Below, in pieces: positions 36,820-55,454 of a stretch of DNA of 64,000 bases. Positions within the stretch are counted from its first letter, which is position 1; each line of letters starts with the position of its first letter. Made by a program: the position numbers and the translations under genes. The stretch comes from Heptranchias perlo (Eukaryota), in contig NC_090353.1 of assembly GCF_035084215.1 (NCBI RefSeq), forward strand, positions 36,890,001 to 36,954,000, written 5' to 3'. The notes under the pieces are model-generated. The model ran no database searches, was not told the origin of the DNA, and worked only from the letters and a program-made list of their open reading frames with translations.

Positions 36820-36950
36820 CGGGGTAACCGGGCCCTGTCTGGGGAGACGGTCTGATACCCCACCCCGGGGTAACCGGGCCCTGTCTGGGGAGACGGTCTG
36901 ATACCCCACCCTGGGGTAACCGGGCCCTGTCTGGGGAGACGGTCTGATGC
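36820..36950 (+). repeat. 45-bp tandem repeat x3 (ggggtaaccgggccctgtctggggagacggtctgat..)
   Basis: Direct inspection. Confidence 0.85.
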
Positions 36951-39900
36951 ACATTCTGGGGTAACTCGGGGCAACAAGGCCTTGTTTTTGGGAAAGCTCT
37001 GACACCCCTTCCCCTTCAACCTGGGCAGGGCTGTCAACTCTGGTTGGCTGCCTTCCTGGAGGTTTCATCACATGACCTCTCACCTCTAACAGCCCTGCAT
37101 TGTCAAACAGCCCTTTTCCCCATTTCCAATATTTAATAGAAAGTTACGGCACAGAAGGAGGCCATTTGGCCCATCGTGCCCGTGCCAGCCGAAAAAGAGT
37201 TATCCAGCTTTAATCCCGCTTGGTCCGTAGCCCTGTAGGTTACGGCACTTTAAGTGCACATCCAAGTACTTTTTAAATGAGTTGAGGGTTTCTGCCTCTA
37301 CCACCCTTTCAGGCAGTGAGTTCCAGACCCCCACCACCCTCTGGGTGAAAAAATTTCTCCTCAGCTCCCCTCTAATCCTTCTACCAATTACTTTAAATCT
37401 GTGCCCCCTGGTCACTGATCCCTCTGCTAAGTTTCTATAACTAATAAACAAAAGTGTTCAAAGAATAAGAAAATAAACATTTTTCAAAAATGCCTTTGAT
37501 TTTTCTTCTGGGTGTTGCTTGTAGCAGTGTCCAGGAAATTAATCTACAATTTCTGGAGACTCCAGAACAATCTCGGAGGGTTGGCAACCCTAATCCTGGG
37601 GCAATGGGTCCCTGTAAGGGGAGAGGGGCTGATACCACCACCCTCCCGGTAATCAGGCCTTGTTTTGTGGAAAGGTCTGGCCCTCCATCCTGGGATAACT
37701 GGTGTTATCGGAGAGGGGTCTGATACACTCCCCTCCAGGTTAACTGGGAGTAACCAGGTCCTGTATGGGTTGAGGGTTCAACACCCCTGTCTGCGGTAAC
37801 AAGGGACAACTGGGCCCTGTATGGGGAATGGATAAAGGGCCTGATCCCCCCCCCATCAAAAGATAATCAGAGCAATTGCACCTCCCCATTGGAATGACTA
37901 TAAACACCTCTGGGTTAGGAGTTCCCAGCTCTTAATCAGATTAAGAAAATAACTGCAAATGGTAGAGATCTAAATAAAAGCAGAAAACCCTGGAATCACA
38001 ATAAGACCTTCAGCATCTGACAGCTTAACCTTTCAGCTGAGGCAGAAATTGAGAGTCCTCAACTGTTTTCTCAGATGCAGACAGACCTGCTGTGTATTTG
38101 GAAAATGTTCTGTTGTTATTTCTTGATGAAATTCTTTGTGCACATGTATATGGTGGATGCTGTTTGTTCTCCAAGTCTGAACCTTCCTCTCTGTGGCTCT
38201 GTTCAACAACTGTCTAATTGATGCCATCTTATTGACTTATTTTTGTTAAGGTGTAGGTTTGAGTTATATTAAATGTAGTGAAAATCCTCTATGATCTCTG
38301 CTAAAGGATGTCAATCTGGGTGTTCACTACTGCAATGAAAGTTCCTTATGCTAAAATGATTTCTATCATATTCATATCCTGTACTGTTAACAATACCCAC
38401 TCCTATATATGTTTTTCAAAATGGTAAACCATATTGTCAATAGGTTTACCTCTATTGGAACCATTGTATAGTATATGAAAAAATCCATTTGTCGCTGCAT
38501 TGCTTGTGCTAATCTCATTCAAATTACTCACCACCAGTGACAGTCCTACTTGCACATGCTCTGATGTGCAGAAATGTCCCACGTTTAAATGTACTGTGTG
38601 AATCTTAAGGCTTAATGGAAATGGTAGACGTGGGGTGTTGCCGATGCTGCTGACCTGTTCTTCACCGTGTTATACAGCTCTAAATTGCTTCTCCAGTCAC
38701 AACACAAGTTTGGAAGGACAGAACCTATAACTATACTGCTGAATGATTTTCACAGTTCAAGTGGACACAGCATGAAAATTTCAAACACCTGCCATTATGT
38801 TTTACTGAAATCCTAGTGACAACTGTGTGTCACTAAACAACCATGAGTTACCCGAACAATGATAAAATCTACAGCAGCCTTCAAGGCTATTTGTTTTCAA
38901 AGAGGGCAGCGTGTTCTCTCCCCGGACTGTCCTGCTGGTTTCCCCCGTCTCTGAAACAGGTACATTGACAGCTGATCTCGTTTGTCCCTATGGAACGTGC
39001 TGATCAGTCAGTGAACTCCAACGACCAGCCCAAGTTTGTTCAGCATGTAAATGGCAACTGTAGCGGAGCAGGAGGTGATCTCCCCTGCTTTTAATTAACA
39101 TTGATTAAAAAGTAGGGAAATGTAAATGTATATTTCACATTGGTTGTATTTTAGAAATGGAATCTCTATAATTAGTGCTTTAATTATGGTAAATGAAGCC
39201 CATCTAAGGCCCACAGCTCTTTTCATTGTAGTAGACTTAGTAATATGGGGAAGTCTGGTAGCCATTTTGTGTCAGACTTGTAAGAAGTTCTTTCTGCTGG
39301 TCTGGATTCAGATGAAGTCATCTATCCGAAATCTCAGATTAATGACATTTTTGATACCTGTGCTTCATTTTCAGCTGGGAACTGTACAGTTTTCCTGCTG
39401 CATGACTTTGCACTGTGATTTAGCTGAAAGAAAAAAGAAAGTCTCCATTGCTGATTCCACATTAAAATAGGTTCAGAAAAATTATCTTTTTAAAAAAAAT
39501 ATCGAATCTTCACCTGAACAGACATCTGCCACGTCAGGTTTTCTCCTCGCTGTTAGCTTGCTCTGCTTATTCAATGAGTAAATGCCGTTCCAGGATCAGG
39601 TTGTTCCAGGTCAGCTTTCAAACTAGTCCAGCTTGATCATCCCTCCATTGGTTCCAATGCAACTACACCAGGCACTTTACTGTCGATGACATGAGGGAAT
39701 GGCCTACTAACAAGGAGACTACTAGATCTGGTGGGCTACCTGTCGGCTAGATATTCCATTTTCTTTTTAAAAGCAAGGATAGTTTTTTTGAGAATATATA
39801 TTTTTAATACAAAATACGGGAGTACTTTAAATAGAAAGCACCCCCAAGACTTCCCATCCTCTTTTTATGTAAGGCAAGAAGTGACTGAGGTTTTGGGACC

Positions 39901-42900
39901 AAGCCAGAGAACCATCTATCTGCAGCTCCCAAACACTGAAAGAAGAGATGGACTGAACGATCTTGCAAAAATTCATACTCCATTACTAGGGGAAACCTCT
40001 GCATGGATCTGAAGATTTTTAGTGTTGTGTCTCGAGTACTGTTCTTCCTTTCCCCTCCCATTACTAGTTTAAAAATTAGGGATCCCCAGGATGTTGAACT
40101 ATACCTAAAGTATGATTGATCCTTGCTAAATCTTGAGTAGAAATGTGACAATAGTATTTGTCTTCAAACAGAAATACAAATGCTCGCTGCTGCTTGCATT
40201 TTCTGGTGCATCCTTTTACCACAGAACCTGACTAACTGCTCTTTGACCTTATCATCAGGTGAGTAAATACAAAGGGGTGGGGTCCTCACTGACACTCCAC
40301 TTGGCATCAGGGGGCCAAACCCATTCTTGGACCAACCTGTTCTGATACCCTTAACAAGGTCTTTTGTGCATAGGGATGAAATGGAGCCTGTTCTCAGTGG
40401 ACTGCAGATAACTGAGAGGCTCCCACACCTGATACCTTTTGATATCTTGCATTCTTATTTGCAAGGCATCCTCTTTGCCTTCAGTCCTGATACTGATAAT
40501 CTCCCCTTTCTCTTTAACCCAGAGGGAGTGGTTTTAGCAGGAGCACCCTCCTTTTCTTTGACTCTGGGGAAAGGTGGTTATGTGACAGCCTCATTTTTTA
40601 ATTCCACATGAATTTCCTTGCACTTTCTTATCCTCTTCTACTTTAAGTTCCTTCCATTTCTTATGCTTTTGAGACATCCAGATTGATGCACCAGAGGACA
40701 GTGGTTCATAGTCAGTTATCTCTGCGTAATAATGCACTTTTCTTCGTGCTGTGCAATGACAAAGGGGCCCGACCTCTTCCTGACATGCAATAGTACTGTT
40801 CAGGTTTTGATGAACGCTGTGATCTTAGTAATTCCTAAATATTTTTTTTTCTGTTCTTATTCCAACACACTGCATATAAGAGTTGGACTTAATGTGGGTT
40901 AATCATTCCTCCCTTGTCCTCGAGGGCAGCGATGTTATCAAATGGTCATGACTTGTACTTTTTGGTACCAGGCTTTAATCTATTTGAGTAATCTTTCCTC
41001 TGTATCATTTTGCTACTCCTATCCCATGCATTTTTCTTCAGGCCTCTGGTTTTCTTCCATTGTGAGGCTGAGGTTAGCTGTTTTCTGTTTTGAGTTGCTC
41101 TCTGCTCAAGAGCCTTCATGCTCCTGGTGCATCTAGTTATTCCTAGGAAAGTCACCTGCAGCTATACTAAGAGGATTTCATCCTGGCTGTAGGATCCAAA
41201 TATATTCGCCAGTTATTGGAAGCCTTAATAATTGTATGTTATAACTAAATGTGCACTGCAGTAAATGTTCATAATTACAAAGAATTATAATTACATAGAA
41301 TTTACAACACAGAAACAGGCCATTCGGCCCAACAAGTCTATGCCGGTGTTTATGCTCCACACGAGCCTTCTCCCTTCCTACTTCATCTAACTCTACCAGC
41401 ATATCCTTCTATTCCTTTCTCCCTCATGTGTTTATCTAGAGTTCCCTTAAATGCGAACACACAGTGCAGACCAGGGAATCAAACCTTGGGGCCTCCTGGT
41501 GCAGAGGGCTCTAACAGGATGCGTCTCACACGAGCCAAATGGAGCAAAGCAGATCGGACAGTCAATCAGTGCATTTATTGATATAAGCAAAATCTGTCAA
41601 GAGAGTGCAATGTGTAGCGAGGACAGAAAAATTATTCTGCTGCTTTATCACTTTCAGATTACGAAGTCTAAATAAATTAAATGCATATTAAAAACAATCA
41701 TGAAAATGAAATATTCCAGGCTTGATCTGCTTCAAAGCAAGCCATATGCACAACTCTAACTTTCAAAAGTAATAGTTAAAAACATCTTTATGTACACATA
41801 AGAGTGAGTTTCAGCTCAATGGGCTCGACTTAAAAAAACAATTGCAATCCAAATTTGATCACTATATAAAAAGATTCAACAATGACAGTGCATTTCAATC
41901 CCATATAGCAGCAACCCTCTATACAAGCGTTTCTGTTGTTTTGTAACTGAACCAGTGTGAAACTATTCTACGGCAAGCTGGTTTAATGGTGAAATGGTCT
42001 ATCAGTGGAATGATGCAGGTTCACTTTGTCAATCTGTGATTTCAGCCAAGCAGCCAAGGGACACTAAGTGAATAAGACGTTCTTCTCCATTGGCAGAGAG
42101 AGTAAGCTCTCTCACTCTTGTTAATACTGCACCTGACTAACTCATCTTGTTTGTTCCAAGTTGTATACTCCTTGCAAGCACTAGACATTAATCTATCAAG
42201 GATAGGTCAGCCCTCATTCTTGACCACAAATCCTGGCTTTTGTAATGAACTTATACAATAGGACGTCATTGTGCAGTACTGAGTGTGTGCTGCACAGGCG
42301 AAGGTGCTGTCTTTCGGATGAGACGTTAAACCGAGGCCCTGTCTGACCTTTCTGATGTAAAAGATCCCACAACACTGTTCCGAAGAAGAGCAGAGGAGTT
42401 CTCCCCGGTGTCCTGGCCAATATTTATCCCTCATTATCTGGTCATTATCACATTGCTGTTTGTGGGATCTTGCTGTGCACAAATTGGCTTCCGCGTTTCC
42501 TACATTGCAACACTGACTACACTTCAAAAGTGCTTCATTGGCTGTAAAGCGCTTTCGGACATCCTGAGGTTGTGAAAGGCACTATATAAATGCAAGTCTT
42601 TTTTTTTCATTGTTGCCAGCCCACGTGCAATATGTCCTACTGGAATTTTATGTTTTGAATTAGTCTGGCATAACACAAGTTTTCTTTATAGTTTCATGTC
42701 ACTTTTGAGCGCATATCTGGCTTGCAAGCTCCTTTTCTTGCAGAGTCAGCAGAGAATCCAAGAAGAACTAAGCCATCCTTGGGGAAGACAAATTTTGGTT
42801 TATTTCGCAAGATAATGAACCATTCAGAAACTCTTGTCCTTGGTTTACTTTTAAGGAATGGTTGGGAGGTGGCTCTTTAGTAAGATACACATTCAGCTTT

Positions 42901-43531
42901 TACCCAGAGGCTGAGTTGAGCCACATCAACATGCTGGAGGTGAAGCAATATGAACTTGCTTCTCCACATCTGGACCTACAAAGGAGAGAGTAATTAACTG
43001 TACGGGATCTAGTCTGCTGAATTTTGTTCTAGGAGAATGGATTACAAATGGCTCAGTAAGCTCTAGAATACCTTTATGTAAAGTTGGCTTTCTCCAAGCT
43101 GCTTTCCTCCATTTGAGCAAGTGAGTTCATGCCAGGGTCCTTCACACCTCCATTCACCATACATGAAAACATTCTTGAGCCCAGAGGACAAAGTTGTACT
43201 GCTCTCTTTAGAATGCTCGTTATTTAGTCTCTTGAGGAGGACAACGCATGTCCCTGTTGCTAGGACAAATGATTCCTGTTTTTCTCACTTGTATCTCTTG
43301 GATTATGTCAGATTTCCCAAAAGCATTTTGCATCAGATGCATTTTGTGGTAAAAACCCATGATGTCTTCCTGATCTTAGTGGCGTTATCCGCATGCCCAA
43401 GTGATCTCTAATACATTAGCATTTACATGAAATATAGATTGCAACGTTTTTTTTATAATTGTTTTGATTTTAATAAAAGATAAGCTAAACACTTTTTTTC
43501 TTCCTTTCTTCCCCCCTGTCTTCCATTGAAG

Positions 43532-45493
43532 AAATGCTCAACTATGCACCCAGGCGATATCCCAGGGAATCTTATGAAGAAAATACACAATACGATGATG
43601 TGCCCTATGATGACTATGAATCTCCATCTCACAGGTCGGAGAGATGGAGGAATATGTCCAGTCAGGCAGAAATGCCATCTGAAGATAATAGAAGGTATTA
43701 TGATGATGCTTCCTATTCTACTTCAGGAAGAGAGAATTTCTTGGATCACGATGAGAGAGATGATCACCATTCACAGTATAATGAATTAAGGAACCCCGTT
43801 GAATCCAGTGGGGATCCAGGATTGTTTGGAAGACCAACAAGTTCCAATGACACTGATGCCAGGAGAGGATCTGGGATCTATAGAAGATCAGTGAGTCCTG
43901 CTGAGTCTAGAGATCGACCAGGATTGTACAGAAGACCACCGAGTCCAAATAATTGGCAGTCTCAGAGACCAGTTGATGACTCAAGGGATTACCAATTCTA
44001 TAGGAGATCCCAAAGTCCTGATGGCAGAGATGGTCAAAATTTATACAATAGATCCCAAAACCCTGTTGATAAAACAGGACACTCAGAATCACACAGGCGA
44101 TCCTGGAGCCCTGGTGATGAGACCAGGGATCAGGGATCAAACCCTAGACCCAGGAGTCCTGTTAAGGCACATGATGCAGAGTTATACAAGTTATTAAGTA
44201 ACGTTATTGATAATGCTCGGCGTTTGGCAGCTAGTAAGAATGACCCCTCTCACACATCCTGGAGAGACCAATCCAGGGACTCCTCTCAAATGGATTCCTC
44301 CCTTTACCAGACCGATACACCTACGGATGGGTTCCATGCAGCTGAGGATTATAACCCTCACTTGAACCAGCACAGTTATATTCATCAAAACACAGAAGTT
44401 TCCAGAAGAGGCCATTCCTTTCACGCTCCCCCTAAAAATGCAAGAGGGCCTTTGCTTAAGCGTCCAAAGGTTCCAGGCCGACGTGGCCTTCTAGGGCGAG
44501 CTCCTGGCCTTTTGGGGAGAGCGCCTGGTCTTCTGGGGGCAGCTCCTGGTCTTCTGGGGGCAGCCCCTGGTCTTCTGGGGAATGCCCCTGGTCTTCTGGG
44601 GACAGCCCCTGGCCTTCTGGGGACAGCCCCTGGCCTTCTAGGGACAGCTCCTGCTGGTTTAGTGGGGTCTTCTGTTTCCAGCATGGCAATGGCTGCCCAC
44701 AAAAATATTTCCCCAGACTCTCCTGCTCATTTGCAGTCATTGGGGAATATATCTGTTGCTCCAGGTAGTCAAATGGAACTGGGGCAACAAATAATAAAAT
44801 GGGCTGGTTTTCACAGTGTCGCTGCTGACCATTCCATGAAAAACAAGTTTGATCCCAACACAGATACCTGTTCTAAGGTAGCCACTGCCTTCCAGTGCTT
44901 GATGGCAAAGCAGCATCAGGATATCTGTCAGTCGACATCAGTGACACATCCAGGCCTCACGTGCCCTGTGATCGATAACTCTTTTGTGTCTCTGTTAAGA
45001 AGGAAGAATGTCATTACAAGTAGGAAAGAGTTGGATGATATTGTACGTCAAGAAGAACCTCTTTTGCAAGAGATCCAGAGCAAGCTGCTGGATTGTATAG
45101 GCCCAATTCTTGTAGCAAGCAGCACCCATGAGTTGAGCTCCAAGCCGCAAAGTTCACAGACCCCTAACCAACTTGCCAGTATGCTCGAGAGGGTGATCAT
45201 GGCTTGCCGCCAATCAATGGTGCTCATTGGGCAAACCTTTGCTTTTGTCAGCCAAGAAAGAAGGAAAAATCTGTTGCGCAAGACCGGGCTGGTCTCAATG
45301 GCTCCAAAGTATGATTATTTCGTGAATCTGGAAAACAATCAGCTGTTTGGGAACAAATACACAAATGAGCTGAGGAAGAGAGTGGAGAAAGTCTACCTCC
45401 CCCCAGTACATAGCCAGGTTTCTTGTTCCAGTAAGTTCATGATTAAAGAGGAGGAACAATCAAAGAACGACTCAGCAATCAAGTCCTCAACAA
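43532..45493 (+). CDS. SUGP2: SUGP2 giant exon (1962 nt): RS/RD-rich N-terminus, GLLGxAP repeats, helical domain (IIKWAGFH..GQTF..LFG)
   Basis: Long pyrimidine tract plus gaag acceptor; open frame; donor A|gtaagt. The IIKWAGFH..RQS..LIGQTF..LFG region matches my recollection of SUGP2. Confidence 0.85.
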
Positions 45494-46033
45494 GTAAGTG
45501 CTCCAATTAATCTCCTGATAGTTTATACAGATACACAGCTTGAATTTAATTTGTGATTACAATATACTGTAGCTATTATTAAAAGTCTCTTGGTGATATT
45601 TTGAATATGCCATGATCTGACAGTGAGTGGAAGGTGTATATATATATATACTTTTATTAAAACCCCATTGATCAGACAACACAACGAAGCCATGGATATC
45701 AATGAACTGAAGTATCATCCCTTCTCTGCTCAGTTCCTGGCCTGGCTAGTACCTAGTGCCCCCTAGCAGTTGGCTACATGGACGCATTTTCAATGGTCTG
45801 GGAGTGGGCCTAGCACCCGCTGTCTTGGCAGCAGAAGCCCGAATGCCTGAGGAGTGAGGTTGCTGTATCAATTTAGATCCAGTCAGAAAAAGGAAAGCCG
45901 GAACATTTCCCCTCCAAATTCTAGTGTCTTGGTTTTGCTGTTTTGAGATTCTGTTGCAGCCTCCTGTTAGCTCACCTCCTTTGCACAGAGATGGCTTGAA
46001 CTGTTGTCTTTTTTTAAGTTTCCTCTTTGGCAG

Positions 46034-46331
46034 ATGCCAAAGCCGGCAAGCAGACCGAGAGAGGTGCTTCGGCATCAGACAGCAGTGGTAGATGGAAGAC
46101 CGAGAAAGGCTCAGCACCCGCTGTCTGCAGTGGCAAGAGCATGGCAGAGAAAGATGCACCATCACAAGATGGCAAAAAAGGGTTTGGCCCAGCAGTTGGT
46201 GAGAGCATCCGCCCCCCAGAAGACACGCAGGTCAAGACTATTATTGATAAGCTAGCTATGTTTGTAGCAGAGAAGGGTGAGGCAGCAGAGAAAGCGGTCA
46301 TCCAGTACAAGAAAGAAGACTCCAATTATAG
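46034..46331 (+). CDS. SUGP2: SUGP2 exon (SURP N-half TIIDKLAMFVAE..)
   Basis: 298 nt, AG/GT boundaries, frame-continuous. Confidence 0.85.
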
Positions 46332-46920
46332 GTAAGCACAACGACGTAGCATATTGATATCAATACAGATGTGAAAGGAAAACTCACTTATTAAGGGGTC
46401 AGAAAGCCTTGAGTGGGTAGTTTGTCCAAAGCATTGCACCTGTTTTAAAATGAAAAAGTACCTACTGATCAGAATCCTTTTAAAAATTTTAATGTTCTTA
46501 CCTGCCAGTTCAGGTCCCTCTCCCAGTCAGGCCACACTTATGCCACTGAACAGAGATTGCGTATTGAAAACAACAGGGAGCACGATTTGAGACCAGCCTG
46601 AAAGCCCACCTTCATGGTTGAAGAGCCTAATGATATTTACTATCTAGGTCGAGCCCACGAACACTGTAACAGCCACTTGGGCAATGTACTAGAGGCCTGT
46701 GGGTGCCCAGGAGTTGTACCCCAGCAAGAATTAGCAGTGTCAGGAGGGGAGGATTGAGTTAATGATGTCAGCTATGCTGTAAGTAGCAGCTTCTGTACAG
46801 TGTTGGCTGATAGCTGCCTGCCCTCTCAGCTGTAGTTAATGCCTGGCCCAGGGAATAGTGACGAAAATAGGAAGGGGTGTCTTGCCTTCTAACTTTTTTT
46901 TAAAATTGTTCATTTTAAAG

Positions 46921-47165
46921 GTTTTTACTTGATGCAGAAAGCAACGAGTACAAGTATTATAAGCAGAAAGTGGCACAGTTCTATAGAGAGAACAGCTGCC
47001 AGTCAAGCAAACCTGGTCCAGAAAGAGATTCTTCAGGAGCTGCTGAGAACAGACAGTCAGGATACAAAATATCCGTGGAGGATAAGGCTGATACATCAGG
47101 GGGTCTCCAACCAGAGTTCCTGGTGAAAGTTGAGACCTCGACAACTTATCCAACAGCAGAAAAAG
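46921..47165 (+). CDS. SUGP2: SUGP2 exon (SURP C-half FLLDAESNEYKYYKQKV..)
   Basis: 245 nt, AG/GT boundaries, frame-continuous. Confidence 0.85.
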
Positions 47166-47629
47166 GTAGGGATAACATAACTGTTGTAAGGAAAGGGTTA
47201 ATCAGACTGTCCTGGAGTCTGTTAATGTTATACTACTATTGATTTCTCTTTGTATGATAGTAATGTTAGCCTTTAGCCTTTGCCTGTTGAGCAGGGAAGT
47301 TTGTCAATTTAAAGTACCACTGGGCTATTGAGCCAAGGCTAACCCTGCAGCAATGGTCAGTTTAGTCACTGCAGTAAACCTAATTAAAAGACATTGGCAT
47401 ACTGATTCATACATATATTTCATCAGTTGATAACAAGTGCAGGAAAAACAGTTTGTTCTGCAAGGGAGAACATCTGGGTATACATCATCCTTCTTAATTG
47501 GGGTTTCTGTAGAAGCAGGGGATTGACTGGTATGCTTTGGTACAGAATCAAAGACAGACTTATAACTATAGTTTCACTTGGTTGAATAACAATGATATGT
47601 AACAAGAGTGAAACTATCGATAAGATAAT

Positions 47630-48040
47630 AAAGTAGGGGAGTTATACTGTCTACGGAAAAAGAGTTTGTTAAGTAAGGAAAACTAAAGTTATTGATAAGG
47701 GATAAGTCAATTAAATTCTCCTTATATGGAGTTGTATTTTAACAATTATATAATTATGTAATACAGAATTGTGTGGATTGTCACGTAGAAGGAGTGAGAG
47801 AAATGTAAAAATATTTGGCCATTTGTAATGAGTATTTGGATTTGTAAAGGTCTAAGACACTGAGCTCAGAACTGTAACACGTTTTGAGTCTCTCAACTTA
47901 ACCAGCAAGGATCAGTTGCAAGTAGTGTCTTTTAAGTATATGTTTAAGTGCTATTATATGTGCTGTATACTTAATAAATCTGTAATACTTGATATTCAAT
48001 GTTTAAGAATCTTTTTGTTTTGAAGAGTAAATTATAACCC
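47630..48040 (+). mobile_element. Possible degraded LTR preceded by a polypurine tract
   Basis: aaagtaggggga PPT-like run, then gttata...tataac inverted ends and an internal aataaa. Lacks clean TG..CA ends. Confidence 0.3.
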
Positions 48041-49162
48041 TTCCTCTAACACTGTCATGACAAAACTCCAGGCAGTAAGATTATGTTTTCCCAGTTTTCT
48101 TCCCCCCCTCTGGAAGATGCTGACTCATCCAGGGGTACGGTTCCTCGAAAACCAGATCACCTCCGTCACCTCGCCATGCGGCTATTCACACGTGAGCCCA
48201 GACAGTGAAATGCCGGCAAAGTGTTGACTGTATGGAGTTTCACGGCCAAGACTGATCCTCTTTCTGCCCAATGTGCACAATTTCCAGTAAGGGTCACTGG
48301 ATAACGATTAGGAGTGGGAACCCAGGCTTCTGCCTCGCTATTCAGTAACCCCTGCTGGGAAGTGAGTGATTGCTCAGATGGGAAATCCCCCAGCCTATTG
48401 TCAGGTATCCTGCCGACACTCACTGGTTGAGGCTCACATACAAAGAACGCACACCTGGAGGATTGGCTGTCGCCTGTTGGACTGTACCCCAGTGAGAGTC
48501 AGTGCTTTCAGGAGGAAATCATAGATCATGGACTTCACAGCATAGAAGGAGACAATTTGGCCCATAGAAAATTTAATTTTTATGGAGGCAAAGGAACTGC
48601 AATTAGAGGTTACACATCCCCCAAAATATACCCCCAAAAATACCAATAAAATATTTGTACCCTTGATGGTGATTCTCATCTTGTAGGTGCTAAACTAAAT
48701 GATTGTCAATTCATCGATTTGTAATAATTTTCCCTGTTGATGGGGAGTTAACACTGCCTGATAACACCCTACATTCTGTCATGGGGTGCAGCATGATTTG
48801 AAGAGAGTGTTGGAGTATGAATGTGGAGTGTTATAGCATTGATGAGAGGCAGGTTCAGTCTCATTCCCACTCCCTGTGGGCCAGCAGCACTGAAGTACAC
48901 CCTCACAAGAAATGGGGGGAGTAGTCCGAGGGCAGATCCTTCCTGAACCGCTATTGTGTGCCTGCCCGTTTCTGACTCTGGGTTAAAGGCAGCAAAGGCC
49001 CTGGTTGGCCCTCCTTTGTGTGCATGCATGGTGTGAGGAGACTACGGTGATTTGGGTGAGGACTGAGGGCGTGTAGTGAAAATCGGCAGCAGGTCAGTTG
49101 TAGATGCTGCTGTCCATGAGCGATTGGTGTTTTCTGGAGCTTAATAACTTGCTTTCTCACAG

Positions 49163-49286
49163 ATGAATCTCTCAGTGACACCAAGACGAGAACCACTGCA
49201 GAGAAACTGGCCAAGTTTGTGGCTGAATGTGGTCCAGAGCTGGAAGAGATTGCCATTGAAAACAATCGGGACAATCCAACCTTCTG
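49163..49286 (+). CDS. SUGP2: SUGP2 exon (second SURP N-half [31 protein letters not shown])
   Basis: 124 nt, same size and phases as SUGP1 exons 5 and 7. Confidence 0.9.
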
Positions 49287-49959
49287 GTAAGAGTACAGAG
49301 ATTGGCTGCTTCCTGACACGTCAGGGATGTAAGAATGTGGGATAGGATCCATTCCTATCGGTAAGCGGCTCCCATATGCTCTCCAACCCAAGGGTGCGTT
49401 AGGTCAGTTGATCCTGTAAAAAATGAACACCAGTCAGCTCCCCGCTCCCATGGCTCAGTTGAAATATACAACACCTGGTGTGGTAATGACCAAAACAGAC
49501 CAGAAAGGCCCAGGTTCAATATCCCTGTCTCTGCTGGGTTAGCTGATCTTAGCTGGGACGCTACAATTGCCCTCAGTGCCTCAGGCTAAGGAGGGGTAAA
49601 AAAGAAATCAGCCAGCGTTCCCGCCCCTGATTAGCTATCCCTGTTGGAAAGTGCGTGTGTATATGGACATCGTTGAAGAGCCTGCGACTCCCAATGCCTG
49701 AGCTCACACAGGCCATTGGACAAGGTAACTCAGAAAGAGTCACTGCCTTCAGGAGAGGAAATGTTTTGGAGGGGGGGGGTGGCGGGAGGGGCGAGGAGAG
49801 GAATTCAGATTCTAGTTCCCTTCCATAAGGCAGGTGGGTATGCTGGCTGCATGGGGTGGGGGGGGGGTTGATCATGGTAGTGCAAAGTAAGCGAACAGTC
49901 TGCTTTTATGGCTCTGTTGCTTTTTTTGTTACATCTTCCTTCTACTTGTTTTCTTGCAG

Positions 49960-49965
49960 ATATTG
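49960..49965 (+). other. Candidate 6-nt microexon (ATATTG) creating TGA on inclusion
   Basis: ~55-nt pyrimidine-rich tract + ttgcag | ATATTG | gtgagt. Confidence 0.5.
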
Positions 49966-50884
49966 GTGAGTCTATCCCAAATCACCAGCTTGTCTGTCTG
50001 GGCACCTGTACCACTTCTTGTATCCACTTGTTAATGTGCCTTGAAATAAACATTGGTCTGCTGATTTCCAATCCATAACAGGAGGGTGATTGGTCCACCG
50101 ACACCCTCACCGATCTGTAACTTTGAGAGCGTGACTGTGACATTAGATCCTGATCCATAAAGTTGCAGCTGGTGAACGTGGCACTGGACCGCTGGCTCAG
50201 GTTCAGTGTTTTGCCAGCACGGGTAGATATCCTCCAGCTATGCACAGGGGAGCCAGTGCATTTTGTGTGCTGTTGCCATCCAGCAGTTGGAACTATGGAC
50301 CAGTTTACTCCTCACAATTGGCTGGTTCTCTGTTTTCATCTGGAATTCCTTGAAGGGCTTTGGGACATCCCAAGGCTGTGAAAGACGCTCTGTCAATGCA
50401 AGATTTTTTTTTCGTTTGGATTTGGGTTAGTGTGAGCGGTTATAATGTAAATCCAACCAAGTATTCCTGAATTGTAGTCACTGTTGTAATGTAGGATACA
50501 CGGCAGCCAATTTGCACACAGCAAGATCCCACAAACAGCAATGTGATAATGTCCAGATCATCTGTTTTAGTGATGTTGGCCCGAGGACACTGCGGAGAAC
50601 TCCCCTGCTCTTCCAGTAGTGGCCATGGAATCTTTTACATCCACCTGAGAGGGCAGACGGGGCCTCGGTGTAATGAGTCATACGAAAAACGGCACCTCCG
50701 ATAGTTCAGTACTGCACTGAAGTGTTAGTCTGGATTATGTGCTCAAGTCTCTGGAGTAGAACTTGAACCCACGATCTTTCCTGTTGCCGTCCTCCTTTAA
50801 TGGACATGCAGCTTTTCGCCACCCTGCTGCCCAGAAACAGGAAAGAGGTGATCACAGGGGTTCCCTTTTTTTGCCTCCCTGCAG

Positions 50885-51105
50885 GTTTCTCTACGACGAG
50901 AACAGTTCCTACTACAAATACTACAAGGAGAAGGTGAGGGAGTACAGTGGCGTGCCGGAGAAATCCGACCCTTCGGCCGATCCTGCACCGGAGGCGGCAT
51001 CCTCGGGCCGTTCCGTTCTGCTGCCCAAAAAGCGGAAGGGGCTGACGTTGAAAGTGGGCATGCTGCCACCCAAGAAAATCCGCCCAAAGGCAACGCCATC
51101 ACCGG
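50885..51105 (+). CDS. SUGP2: SUGP2 exon (FLYDENSSYYKYYKEKV..LKVGMLPPKK)
   Basis: 221 nt; LKVGM motif as recalled for SUGP2. Confidence 0.9.
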
Positions 51106-52574
51106 GTAAGCGGGAACAAGCTGTTTACATTTCACTGGAGATGTGTGGATCAAGCCGTGTTGCTCAATGCAGTGGTGACCCCGCCCCCCCACTACCTGAC
51201 CTAATAGAGGGACCCCGTCCAGCCCAGGGGCATTTTAGAAAAATGACGGAAATTAAGACTTAGAGTGACACACTTTTAAAATTTCTGAAAGGTCCATTTA
51301 AATTTATCATCAAGTTGTCAGCTATGACCCACCGCTTTTCATTTTAAAAATGAAATATCCTGGGAAAATTACTGGCACAATGTCCCCTGCTGGTCTCCCG
51401 GGCTCTCAAGTCTTCAGTTCTACATTGAAGTGTCAGCCTAGGTTATGTGCTCAAGTCCTGGAGTGGAGCTTCTGGCCCAGAGGCAATCAATAATGCTACC
51501 CGAGCCAAGCTTGACACACCTAAAGTTAATCCAAATGTGGCCAGGGTTTGACTGGAGGCACTTCACACACTTATTCACCAAGTAAAGGTGGCAGTTCAGT
51601 GTGGTTGTTACCAATTCGAGTCTGTCATAGATACCTTCACAAGTTCAGCGGTATTAGTCGTTCCTGTAAGCTCCTGTAGTCTGAGCATCTTACTTTTATG
51701 GGAGTTGACTCACGCTGCCCTGTATCTCCTTGTACAATAGCAGGACCCAGAGGTGTAACAACGAAACCTCCGTATGATCCGGACATGATCTCGTGTCTTT
51801 CACACATCTGTTTCTTAAATCTCTTGAAAGACTACCAAGTTCACACTAGATGAGACAAGGCTTGGTTTGAATCATTAAGCGGCTTCATTACACAGTTTGG
51901 TGAACATACAGAGCAACAGATAGAATCAGGTTCACTAAGTTCAATTAGTAAAGCCTATTTCCACAGAATGGTGTAAAAGTAATGAACACGTGACGCTACC
52001 CCACTTCAGTGGGTTGTATTACTTAAACAGAATAACCGCTCCGCATTCTGTCCTACATTCAAGGGCAGAACCTGTTCTCTCTGCAGTCTCCTGTCTTTTG
52101 CAGCCTTTTGCTGCCTCGCTCCCTGTGCAGCATCCTGTTTCGAAAGTCTCTCCCTGCGCCCCAAAAGCCTGTCCCTCTTCTATTCTCCATCTCATAGACA
52201 GACAGAGATTAAAGGGTTTTCCAGCACACGGGTGAGAGATGTTTTCTGACAACCCAGATTAGCTTAGAAATTGTTATTGTGGAATGTGTAGGAAAAGCAA
52301 CTTCTGATTAGCATATTGACCGCTTTTTGTCTGTCGTCTGATCTGCGTCCCCTTCATTGAAGCTGTCCCCAGAAAATAATCCCTTTAAAGCGAGATTTAA
52401 CTTAAAAACACGTTGTAAAATAACTAATCTACATCCTTTCAGTGGAAAAATGACCCACAAAAGAATCCAGAAATATGATCTGTCATTCATGTGTCAGTGT
52501 TGTTGAAGCTGTCCTTTTGGTTGTTGCTAAAATCACAGGCGTAAATCACTAATAACTCTCTGTTGTCATTTCAG

Positions 52575-52633
52575 TCCGAGAGCTGAAGAGAATCGGCTAT
52601 GACAAGCCAACGTACAAACAGAAGAAAAAAACA
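52575..52633 (+). CDS. SUGP2: SUGP2 exon (VRELKRIGYDKPTYKQKKKT)
   Basis: 59 nt, tttcag/gtaagt, frame-continuous. Confidence 0.85.
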
Positions 52634-52977
52634 GTAAGTTTAGGAGCATCGTGCACTCGGCCGTTTCTACTGGTACTTATCCTTCTAATCCTCAGTCCTG
52701 TTCCTAATCTGATATTTTTTTTAATATTCAATTGATATATAAATAATTGCTTTAGCTGGGAGCCTATTCCATGCATCCACTACTCCATGCTGGAGCGGAT
52801 ATTTAAATGCTGGCTTGTTGAGTGCAGTCAAACAGTTTAAGAATGTTTTCACATTTTCTCCCGTCCTCTCCCACAGTCCCAAACTCCCAAAGATGTTAGC
52901 CGCGGCTCAGTGGGCAGCACTCTCGCCGCCGAGTCAGAAGGTCATGGGTTCAAGTCCCACTCGAGAGACTTACCCAC

Positions 52978-53011
<34 letters not shown>

Positions 53012-53773
53012 AGAGTACTGAAGGAGCGCTGTGCTGTCTTTCGGATGAGACTTTAAACTGAGGCCCTGTCTACCTTCTCAGGCGGACATAAAATATCCTA
53101 TGGCACTATTTTGAGGAAGACCAGGGGAGTTCTCCTGGTGTCCTGGTCAATATTTATCTCTCAACCAACATCACTTAAAAAAAACAGATTATCTGGTCAT
53201 TATCAAATTGTTGTTTGTGGGATCTTGCTGTGCGCAAATTGGCTGCCACATTTCCTACGTTACAACAGTGACTACACTTCAAAAGTACTTCATTGGCTGT
53301 AAAGCGCTTTGGGATGACCTGAGGTGTTGAAAGGCACTGTGTAAATGCAAGTCTTTCTTTCAAAGGTACTGGTTGTTGTGGGTTCAGACACTCGCTCCAG
53401 TAGCTCCCTCAAGTGACCATTCTTCATACTTGAGCCTTGTCGGCAGCACATTGGACTCCGGAGGGGAGGGCACCCCCGCCGAGCCTGATCCTGTCCTCGC
53501 TGTGAACTCTCCATCAGGGGAGCCCGGGCCGTTTGATCCTCCCTAGGCAAGGGACGCTGAGACAACTTATACCAGTCTACTGTCACCTTGGCAGAAATGA
53601 GCTAACTAAGCACAGACCAGAGACCGAGCCGGGAACCTACTAGTCTGTAAGGCTCAGTTCCACATTGGATGGTGCCTTTAGCCACTGCACCAGTAAGGGA
53701 CCCTGACACCGGTTAAATTGATTCGCCGTTGGGGATGTAAAAGGTTTTTTCTGACCAAATGCTTCTCTTTCAG

Positions 53774-53910
53774 AAAAATGAGGATATAAATTACACTAAA
53801 AACAGGCTGGCAGTGGACAACCTTGGGTACCAGATGCTGCAGAAGATGGGCTGGAAGGATGGAGAGGGGCTGGGCTCAGGAAAACAGGGCATCAGAGACC
53901 CCATCAACAG
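53774..53910 (+). CDS. SUGP2: SUGP2 G-patch exon ([30 protein letters not shown])
   Basis: 137 nt, G-patch motif. Confidence 0.92.
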
Positions 53911-54127
53911 GTATGAAACAGGACAGACAGGGCTGGCTAGACACTGCCCTTTCACGTTTGGGTACTGGTTTCACACCCAGCCTAAACTCCGGCAATGAAT
54001 CTTTGTGTCTCTGCGGGCCGTAAGGGTCCCAGCTTGAACATCACGCCCATTAATGAGATCAAAAGTGTTTGTTGTTATTCAGTTGCCTGCACTCACATTC
54101 CTCACTGTATGAATTGGAAACTAGTAC

Positions 54128-54470
54128 CTTCCACTTCAGTGGGATTTATCAACGATAGGCATAGTACATCCACTGGAGCTGTGAACTCATCCAGTAGTTT
54201 GAATTGTATGACACTGGGGGACAGTACTGGTGTGTACAGGTCTGTCACTGTATAGCACTGGGGGACAGTACTGGTGTGTACAGGCCTGTCACTGTATAAC
54301 ATTGGGGGACAGTACTGGTGTGTACAGGTCTGTCACTGTATAACACTGGGGTACAGTACTGTACACACCAGTACTGTCCCCCAGTGTTATACAATTCAAG
54401 CAGCTGGATGAGTTCACAGCTCCAGTGGATGTACTATGTCTGTCGTTATGAAATCCCACTGAAGTGGAAG
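54128..54470. repeat. Inverted repeat with ~112-nt arms (54128-54239 and 54359-54470)
   Basis: Arms are reverse complements with ~9 differences; the loop consists of 46-bp satellite units. Confidence 0.9.
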
Positions 54471-54656
54471 ATACAGGTCTGTCACAGGAGGTGGTAGAGA
54501 TGGAACAACTTGAAGGAATAAATTCAGTATCTCATGACCTTAATCTGTCTTGGCTCCAGTGGTTTTTTTTTCTCAATACTGCTTTGGTACCAATATACTA
54601 AATAAGCCTTCTAACAGCACTGTAAATCTTACAGAGGAACCCTTTCTCCTCCTTAG

Positions 54657-54792
54657 GGGTGTGACGTCGTCAGACAGGTCTGGGCTAGGAGTCGGCAGTG
54701 CTGTGGAGACGGATGAAGGGGATAATGAGTTTGCCTCTTTCCGTAAACGGATGATGGTGGCATTCAGAAGCAAGCTGCTTTCTAAATCCTAG
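54657..54792 (+). CDS. SUGP2: SUGP2 last coding exon (..EFASFRKRMMVAFRSKLLSKS*)
   Basis: 136 nt; the stop TAG is the final codon, directly followed by donor gtacgt. Confidence 0.88.
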
Positions 54793-55454
54793 GTACGTAC
54801 ATCATACATCTGTGGGGCTGGCCTGCTGCAAACTGTTCAAAAGAAGCAAAACAACTGTAAGATTGTTAGCAGGAGCTGAGATGTTAAGAATGACTTGTAT
54901 TTGTATAGCTTATCGCAGTTCTCAGGGAAGTCCCACAGTGCTTCATGTGCGTTGATTTACATTGAATGTACAGCACAGAAACAGGCCATTCGGCCCAACT
55001 GGTCTATGCCGGTGTTTATGGTCCACACGAGCCTCCTCCTCCCTTACTTCATCTCACTCTTTCAGCATATCCTTCTAGTCCTTTCTCCCTCATGTACTTA
55101 TCTAGCTTCCCCTTAAAGGCATCTTTGCTATTCCCCTCAACATTCTCACCACTCTCTGGGTAAAGAAGTTTCTCCTGAATTCCCTATTGGATTTATTAGT
55201 GATTATCTTATATTTATGGTGGAGTAGAGTGATTGCTGTTATGTCGGCAAAGAAGTTGACCTAACCTTAGTGTCTGTCCCTTTGGCTGAGGAGGGGGGAT
55301 ATCAGACAGAGCTCAAATTCCTGACCGTATCCAGCAATCCCTTGTGTGGATGACAGATGACCACGGGATCGGGCTCAGCTGTTATACCCTCCGTGTTTGT
55401 GTAGCCTGCCAATACTCACTGGGTGAGGCACTGGGGGCAGGTCGTTGGGGCAGG

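Follow-up and report, generated by a model that had tools for sequence, protein, structure and literature searches.

The window, i.e. the whole 64-kb stretch of Heptranchias perlo DNA analysed here, carries the paralogous genes SUGP1 and SUGP2 arranged head to head, with SURP introns placed at a matching codon position in both. One intron of SUGP2, about 1.6 kb long (49287-50884), contains a run of six bases, ATATTG, bordered on one side by an acceptor-like site and on the other by a donor-like site. The features relevant to the discussion are given below in window positions; the intronic elements are read from sequence only, and the hairpin from a folding prediction.

About 10000-36500, minus strand: SUGP1
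36563-54792, plus strand: SUGP2
49163-49286, plus strand: SUGP2 exon that carries the initial two thirds of the second SURP domain, ending in phase 2 (TTC TG) and covered by contigs X2, X3, X4, X7 and X8
49899-49957, plus strand: pyrimidine-rich stretch of 59 nt, AG-free
49956-49997, plus strand: predicted 14-pair hairpin extending over both splice-like sites
49960-49965, plus strand: ATATTG, the candidate exon of 6 nt, flanked by cag and gtgagt and not included in the covering contigs
49966-49971, plus strand: consensus donor-like GTGAGT following a G
50007-50050, plus strand: two TGTA motifs (50007, 50019) and an A[AT]TAAA (50045-50050), a possible intronic polyadenylation signal
50885-51105, plus strand: SUGP2 exon with the remainder of the second SURP domain, starting with G TTT and joined to 49286 in all contigs seen

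The strong acceptor-like and donor-like borders around ATATTG are a real observation, and the arrangement cag/ATATTG/gtgagt lies, as an earlier note on this DNA had described, between the two exons listed. The intron interrupts the codon for W889 of SUGP2 (P0001), inside the Pfam Surp domain (residues 857-909), which bears out the claim that the candidate exon splits the second SURP domain; the G-patch (residues 997-1039) is encoded beyond the intron. Equally correct is the coding consequence ascribed to the exon. Direct joining of 49286 to 50885 yields TGG (Trp), inclusion of ATATTG yields TGA at the upstream junction and, given inclusion, later junctions would follow about 225, 285 and 420 nt downstream of the stop. 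As a rule, nonsense-mediated decay (NMD) acts on stops that precede a later exon junction by over 50-55 nt. If included, ATATTG would place the TGA at the distance typical of a poison exon, and NMD of the inclusion form is predicted because the later junctions, about 225 nt and more beyond, exceed this limit.

The candidate acceptor is preceded by a good tract, 21 of the 25 bases upstream of the CAG being pyrimidines, which reaches position -6 relative to ATATTG. Branch-point-like A residues are found at 49908 (-52) and 49931 (-29), both weak matches. UGC occurs at 49901, 49918 and 49955 (-59, -42 and -5), the last copy being part of the acceptor's own ugcag. Since 16 UGC are found in the initial 674 nt of the intron, three of them in 60 nt are unremarkable. 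Of the long pyrimidine-rich tract with UGC motifs described in the earlier note, the tract is borne out, and the UGC part is weaker than described. The region 49860-50040 is single-copy in the H. perlo genome and is flanked by repeats at about 49430-49670 and about 50300-50800. A scan of the SUGP1 and SUGP2 introns in the window detected five microexon-like sites preceded by at least 18 pyrimidines in 25 bases, and the 49960 site ranks highest (21). In the same scan, the SUGP1 SURP introns which match those of SUGP2 carried no comparable microexon-like site. Weaker microexon-like sites reside in SUGP2 intron 1, plus strand, at 37313-37315 (3 nt) and 41042-41061 (20 nt).

Transcripts, proteins and a bird intron across the junction

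Transcript data consist of eight contig sets from two studies and two organisms, none recorded as RNA and all devoid of tissue labels. Skipping was found in all five contigs covering the upstream exon, one each from X2, X3, X4, X7 and X8. As an example, in the X2 contig (707 nt, depth 145) letters 272-396 match 49161-49285, letters 397-618 match 50884-51105, and nothing lies between; the X3, X4, X7 and X8 contigs similarly run from the upstream exon directly into the start of exon 50885. The X7 and X8 contigs differ from the window at 3 of 128 letters and derive from a close relative. Sets X1, X5 and X6 have no contig on the flanking exons; records may have been filtered out. The region from about 49790 to 50290 is uncovered in all eight sets, which carries no weight as evidence. 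Contigs show presence rather than absence, and rare, tissue-bound or NMD-degraded forms are probably lost from them. The search for transcripts including ATATTG, indicated in the earlier note as one way to check the exon, leans negative, with none in the five covering contigs, on data from unlabelled tissue in which rare or NMD-degraded forms are dropped.

SUGP2 records exist for about 20 species of sharks, rays and chimaeras. Among 62 SUGP2 proteins of cartilaginous fishes, 60 reach the junction and 59 read straight through it. The exception is isoform X7 of an electric ray (P0061), which leaves the junction into a tail of 9 residues having no counterpart in the intron 49287-50884. Of 263 records of bony vertebrates, 236 read straight through by pattern and three more by hand. 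Four deviate at the junction: one ends, one continues into another tail of 24 residues, one has an insert of 50 residues, one other sequence. The 20 records left over represent other proteins, fragments or unmatched entries. An insert of two residues at the junction, as expected from in-frame decoding of the exon, was found in none of the 60 cartilaginous-fish and 243 bony-vertebrate records reaching it. Very short exons are missed by annotation pipelines, and protein records are blind to NMD isoforms; therefore the survey mainly excludes a common in-frame version of the exon. The electric-ray isoform, one of orangutan (P0201) and one of marmoset (P0211) are annotated forms which leave the main frame, or carry the 50-residue insert, at the equivalent of the 49286/50885 junction. 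As they all deviate at one junction, this intron contains additional, lineage-specific exons in a number of species.

The absence of a 2-residue insert bears on the hypothesis that the exon is included and its stop neutralised, either by A-to-I editing at the exon's first base, which would turn the stop into Trp, or by readthrough, with the SURP domain gaining two residues. The first A of the exon is indeed paired in the hairpin predicted over both splice-like sites. Yet, according to the folding model the hairpin looks ordinary for this genome: its z score is -4.1 only if the fold is trimmed after the fact, and -1.7 and -1.2 in wider windows, and equally good folds are obtained at 19 of 150 random positions. 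The hairpin and editing reading was dropped on this account and, given also that inclusion is unseen, neutralisation of the stop is judged highly improbable.

The conservation of the element was assessed in a bird. Metagenome contigs scanned with a SUGP2 protein alignment provided one locus, L076 (1-8345), which is bird genomic DNA within the metagenome collection, avian by its nearest proteins (93-95%), and carries part of SUGP2. The locus contains the whole orthologous intron, 805 nt long and identical in position and phase to that of the shark. Three 6-nt AG..GT pairs are present, and none combines a good tract with a good donor, the best having 17 of 25 pyrimidines and a poor donor. The bird intron does not align to the shark stretch above shuffled sequences, 154 of 200 shuffles scoring as well, and it lacks AATAAA. 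The expectation of conservation in related species leans negative as well, no equivalent element being present in the single bony-vertebrate intron compared; the conservation among jawed vertebrates usual for SRRM3/4 microexons is not seen in this one bird intron. One bird intron says little, in turn, about an exon restricted to sharks. Microexon 33 of mouse and rat Cltc is reported to be lineage-restricted and unannotated and to introduce a stop (PMC13676984). Because lineage-restricted stop microexons of this sort exist, absence in the bird is compatible with a function in the shark. According to the same source the Cltc exon is 38 nt long, frameshifting and penultimate, escapes NMD and was demonstrated by RT-PCR, and in these respects it differs from the SUGP2 candidate.

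Frequency of similar motifs in the genome

How frequently such a motif may arise by chance was estimated in a background sample of the same genome (74 stretches of 10 kb, both strands, for a total of 1.48 Mb), by using thresholds chosen after the site was known. Sites of the form YAG-(3-27 nt)-GTRAG preceded by at least 21 pyrimidines in 25 bases number six in the sample. None is left in the 1.48 Mb, both strands included, once either the donor G/GTRAGT or an AG-free zone of 55 nt is added to the pyrimidine threshold. Assuming independence, strict sites including the AG-free zone are expected at 0.33 per Mb, which corresponds to a chance of 0.05% per 1.6-kb intron and 1.6% per 47 kb of intron. 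The same model predicts about 2,000-2,200 equally good sites genome-wide, both strands considered. By this estimate, the motif would exceed chance expectation locally and not genome-wide.

A related class, Y12-N-CAG-(3-12 nt)-G/GTRAGT, has 138 matches genome-wide. Among the matches listed (100 of 138), lengths multiple of three were found in 41 cases versus 40 expected (P 0.46). Because no such excess is observed among the matches listed, frame-selected microexons may make up at most about a quarter of the class, with the proviso that the length test is inapplicable to poison exons. Counts of patterns versus reversed patterns (29 vs 6; 138 vs 84) are unusable as a measure of enrichment, and these controls were set aside because CG is part of the reversed pattern and repeat copies account for many of the matches. 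The motif by itself is striking within the window, yet a weak predictor of exon use.

The favoured interpretation is that ATATTG is a cryptic pseudo-exon, formed by chance in a pyrimidine-rich intron and with no selected role. We assign to it a probability of about 0.55, a figure which, as the odds behind the wording used for the other readings, reflects judgement and was not computed. It is favoured because the large pool of chance sites in the genome, the lack of inclusion in contigs and the absence in the bird outweigh the local rarity of the motif. According to this view, six bases would be too short for ordinary exon definition in the absence of a dedicated helper, and the real acceptor at 50885 would win. 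Rare inclusion events would create the TGA and be cleared by NMD, and clearance would keep the site harmless and allow it to persist. Against this interpretation, the site falls in the far tail of the local distribution (0 in 1.48 Mb; 0.05% per 1.6-kb intron) and is the best in the window. It resides in single-copy sequence between two repeats, within a compact splicing-factor gene. Neural or NMD-degraded isoforms would probably be missed by contigs of unlabelled tissue, and the P0061, P0201 and P0211 isoforms of other species leave the main frame at this same junction. If the site is indeed an unused look-alike, little follows, beyond the frequency with which convincing microexon motifs occur in a large genome.

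Possible regulated uses of the candidate sites

The candidate could be a real poison microexon limited to cartilaginous fishes, or to some of them, a tentative reading to which we give odds clearly below even. Inclusion would take place in certain cells, upon the action of an SRRM3/4 helper or the loss of a PTBP1 repressor, and the resulting TGA would trigger NMD and lower SUGP2. The combination of a strong tract, a 59-nt AG-free zone and a G/GTGAGT donor is rare, later junctions would follow the stop by about 225 nt or more, and the host encodes a splicing factor. Two loci encoding an eMIC domain (PF15230) reside in the genome, which only permits a dependence on SRRM3/4 and a tissue-specific use. 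In a study of SRRM3/4 targets, these have a strong donor, and the tract and the branch point lie at a distance from the AG, the working UGC occupying the space between, though UGC is not strictly required (bioRxiv 2024.09.17.613571). The candidate resembles such neural microexons in its length (6 nt, within the 3-27 nt range), in having a strong donor and upstream UGC, and in its long pyrimidine stretch free of AG. In contrast to them, its tract extends to -6, the only nearby UGC being the acceptor's own; the copy at -42 falls past the branch point only if this is the A at -52. Judged from its sequence, the arrangement of UGC in the candidate does not fit well the spacer architecture of SRRM3/4 targets. 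Moreover, SRRM3/4 microexons mostly keep the frame open, whereas ATATTG would close it with a TGA. Inclusion in none of the five covering contigs, the absence of the element in the bird and the largely missing frame selection in the motif class genome-wide equally weigh against a regulated exon.

Splicing-factor genes are a class rich in poison exons, and poison exons of splicing factors, such as that of Srsf3, are embedded in very strongly conserved sequence. Conservation of this kind was not found for the SUGP2 candidate in the one outgroup compared, the bird. The candidate resembles exon 4 of Srsf3 in that its gene encodes a splicing regulator and its stop fits the distance rule of NMD; poison exons such as Srsf3 exon 4 are in turn long and NMD-sensitive by experiment, the candidate being only 6 nt (PMC13676984). 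A closer precedent may be BAK1 exon 5, which two reports describe as a poison microexon leading to a premature stop and NMD (bioRxiv 2025.11.26.689062, PMC13542418). The parallel concerns the generation of a stop by a microexon, and repression by PTBP1 through the pyrimidine tract would be a plausible parallel for the SUGP2 candidate; SUGP2 itself is presented in a further source as a little-studied partner of PTBP1 (PMC11045219). The BAK1 exon is described as highly conserved and was shown to be included in neurons, whereas the SUGP2 candidate is skipped in contigs and absent in the bird. It also differs from the BAK1 exon because the stop would be formed at the junction by an exon of 3n length.

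The literature searched yielded no description of a microexon or poison exon in SUGP2, which speaks against the poison microexon; VastDB and the supplements of the SRRM3/4 paper may list SUGP2 events. The gene name SUGP2 had no match in paper supplements, the MicroExonator table reporting coordinates and transcript ids rather than names. In mouse, the same table lists nothing at chr8 70.23-70.27 Mb, which we take to be the Sugp2 interval (a positive control was found), and no mouse microexon shares the six letters ATATTG. If inclusion were true, the candidate would be a very small poison microexon, misfiled as frame-preserving by length-based screens because the stop forms only at the junction, and would provide a first handle on SUGP2 regulation.

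The sequence downstream of the candidate suggests yet another use of the acceptor. The AATAAA at 50045 is the intron's single A[AT]TAAA motif and lies 85 nt past the candidate acceptor, so that an acceptor, an AATAAA and upstream UGUA motifs, as looked for in intronic polyadenylation, are found together. Among 438 strong acceptor-like sites of the background, AATAAA occurs within 120 nt in 9, and is preceded by TGTA in 3. The acceptor at 49960 could accordingly open an alternative last exon: splicing would lead to an immediate TGA, and cleavage after the AATAAA would produce a stable mRNA encoding a SUGP2 of 888 residues, lacking the end of the second SURP domain and the G-patch. Normally, U1 at the GTGAGT would keep such an event in check. 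The electric-ray model, which ends 9 residues beyond the junction, is in line with early termination; its tail, as mentioned, has no match in the intron, and all 60 cartilaginous-fish records extend past the junction. In none of the contigs covering the upstream exon is 49286 joined to 49960, though a stable last exon of 110 nt would be expected to assemble more readily than a microexon; contigs cannot show transcript ends. Taking into account also that the AATAAA is missing in the bird intron and that the signal was noticed after the fact, an alternative last exon seems unlikely.

The two uses of the acceptor could be combined in a shark-lineage off-switch of SUGP2 working in two ways, a scenario that we regard as rather improbable. 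One acceptor would make the junction stop, and the donor six bases on would decide the outcome. Onward splicing would generate a 6-nt frame-neutral poison microexon and lead to mRNA decay; if the donor were left unused, the AATAAA 85 nt further along would terminate the transcript, and a stable SUGP2 without G-patch would be made.

Other features of the window

On the minus strand, each of the two SURP exons of SUGP1 is preceded by one copy of an exact 117-nt duplicate (28831-28947 and 23726-23842), the adjoining coding parts having diverged. The duplicated sequence includes several AGs and has an open frame, and could have arisen by gene conversion or be an alternative-acceptor element common to both exons. 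In SUGP2, a donor-like GT directly follows the stop codon (54790-54798), and an acceptor-like site is found at about 56158. On the basis of these signals, an intron is probably present at the start of the SUGP2 3' UTR.
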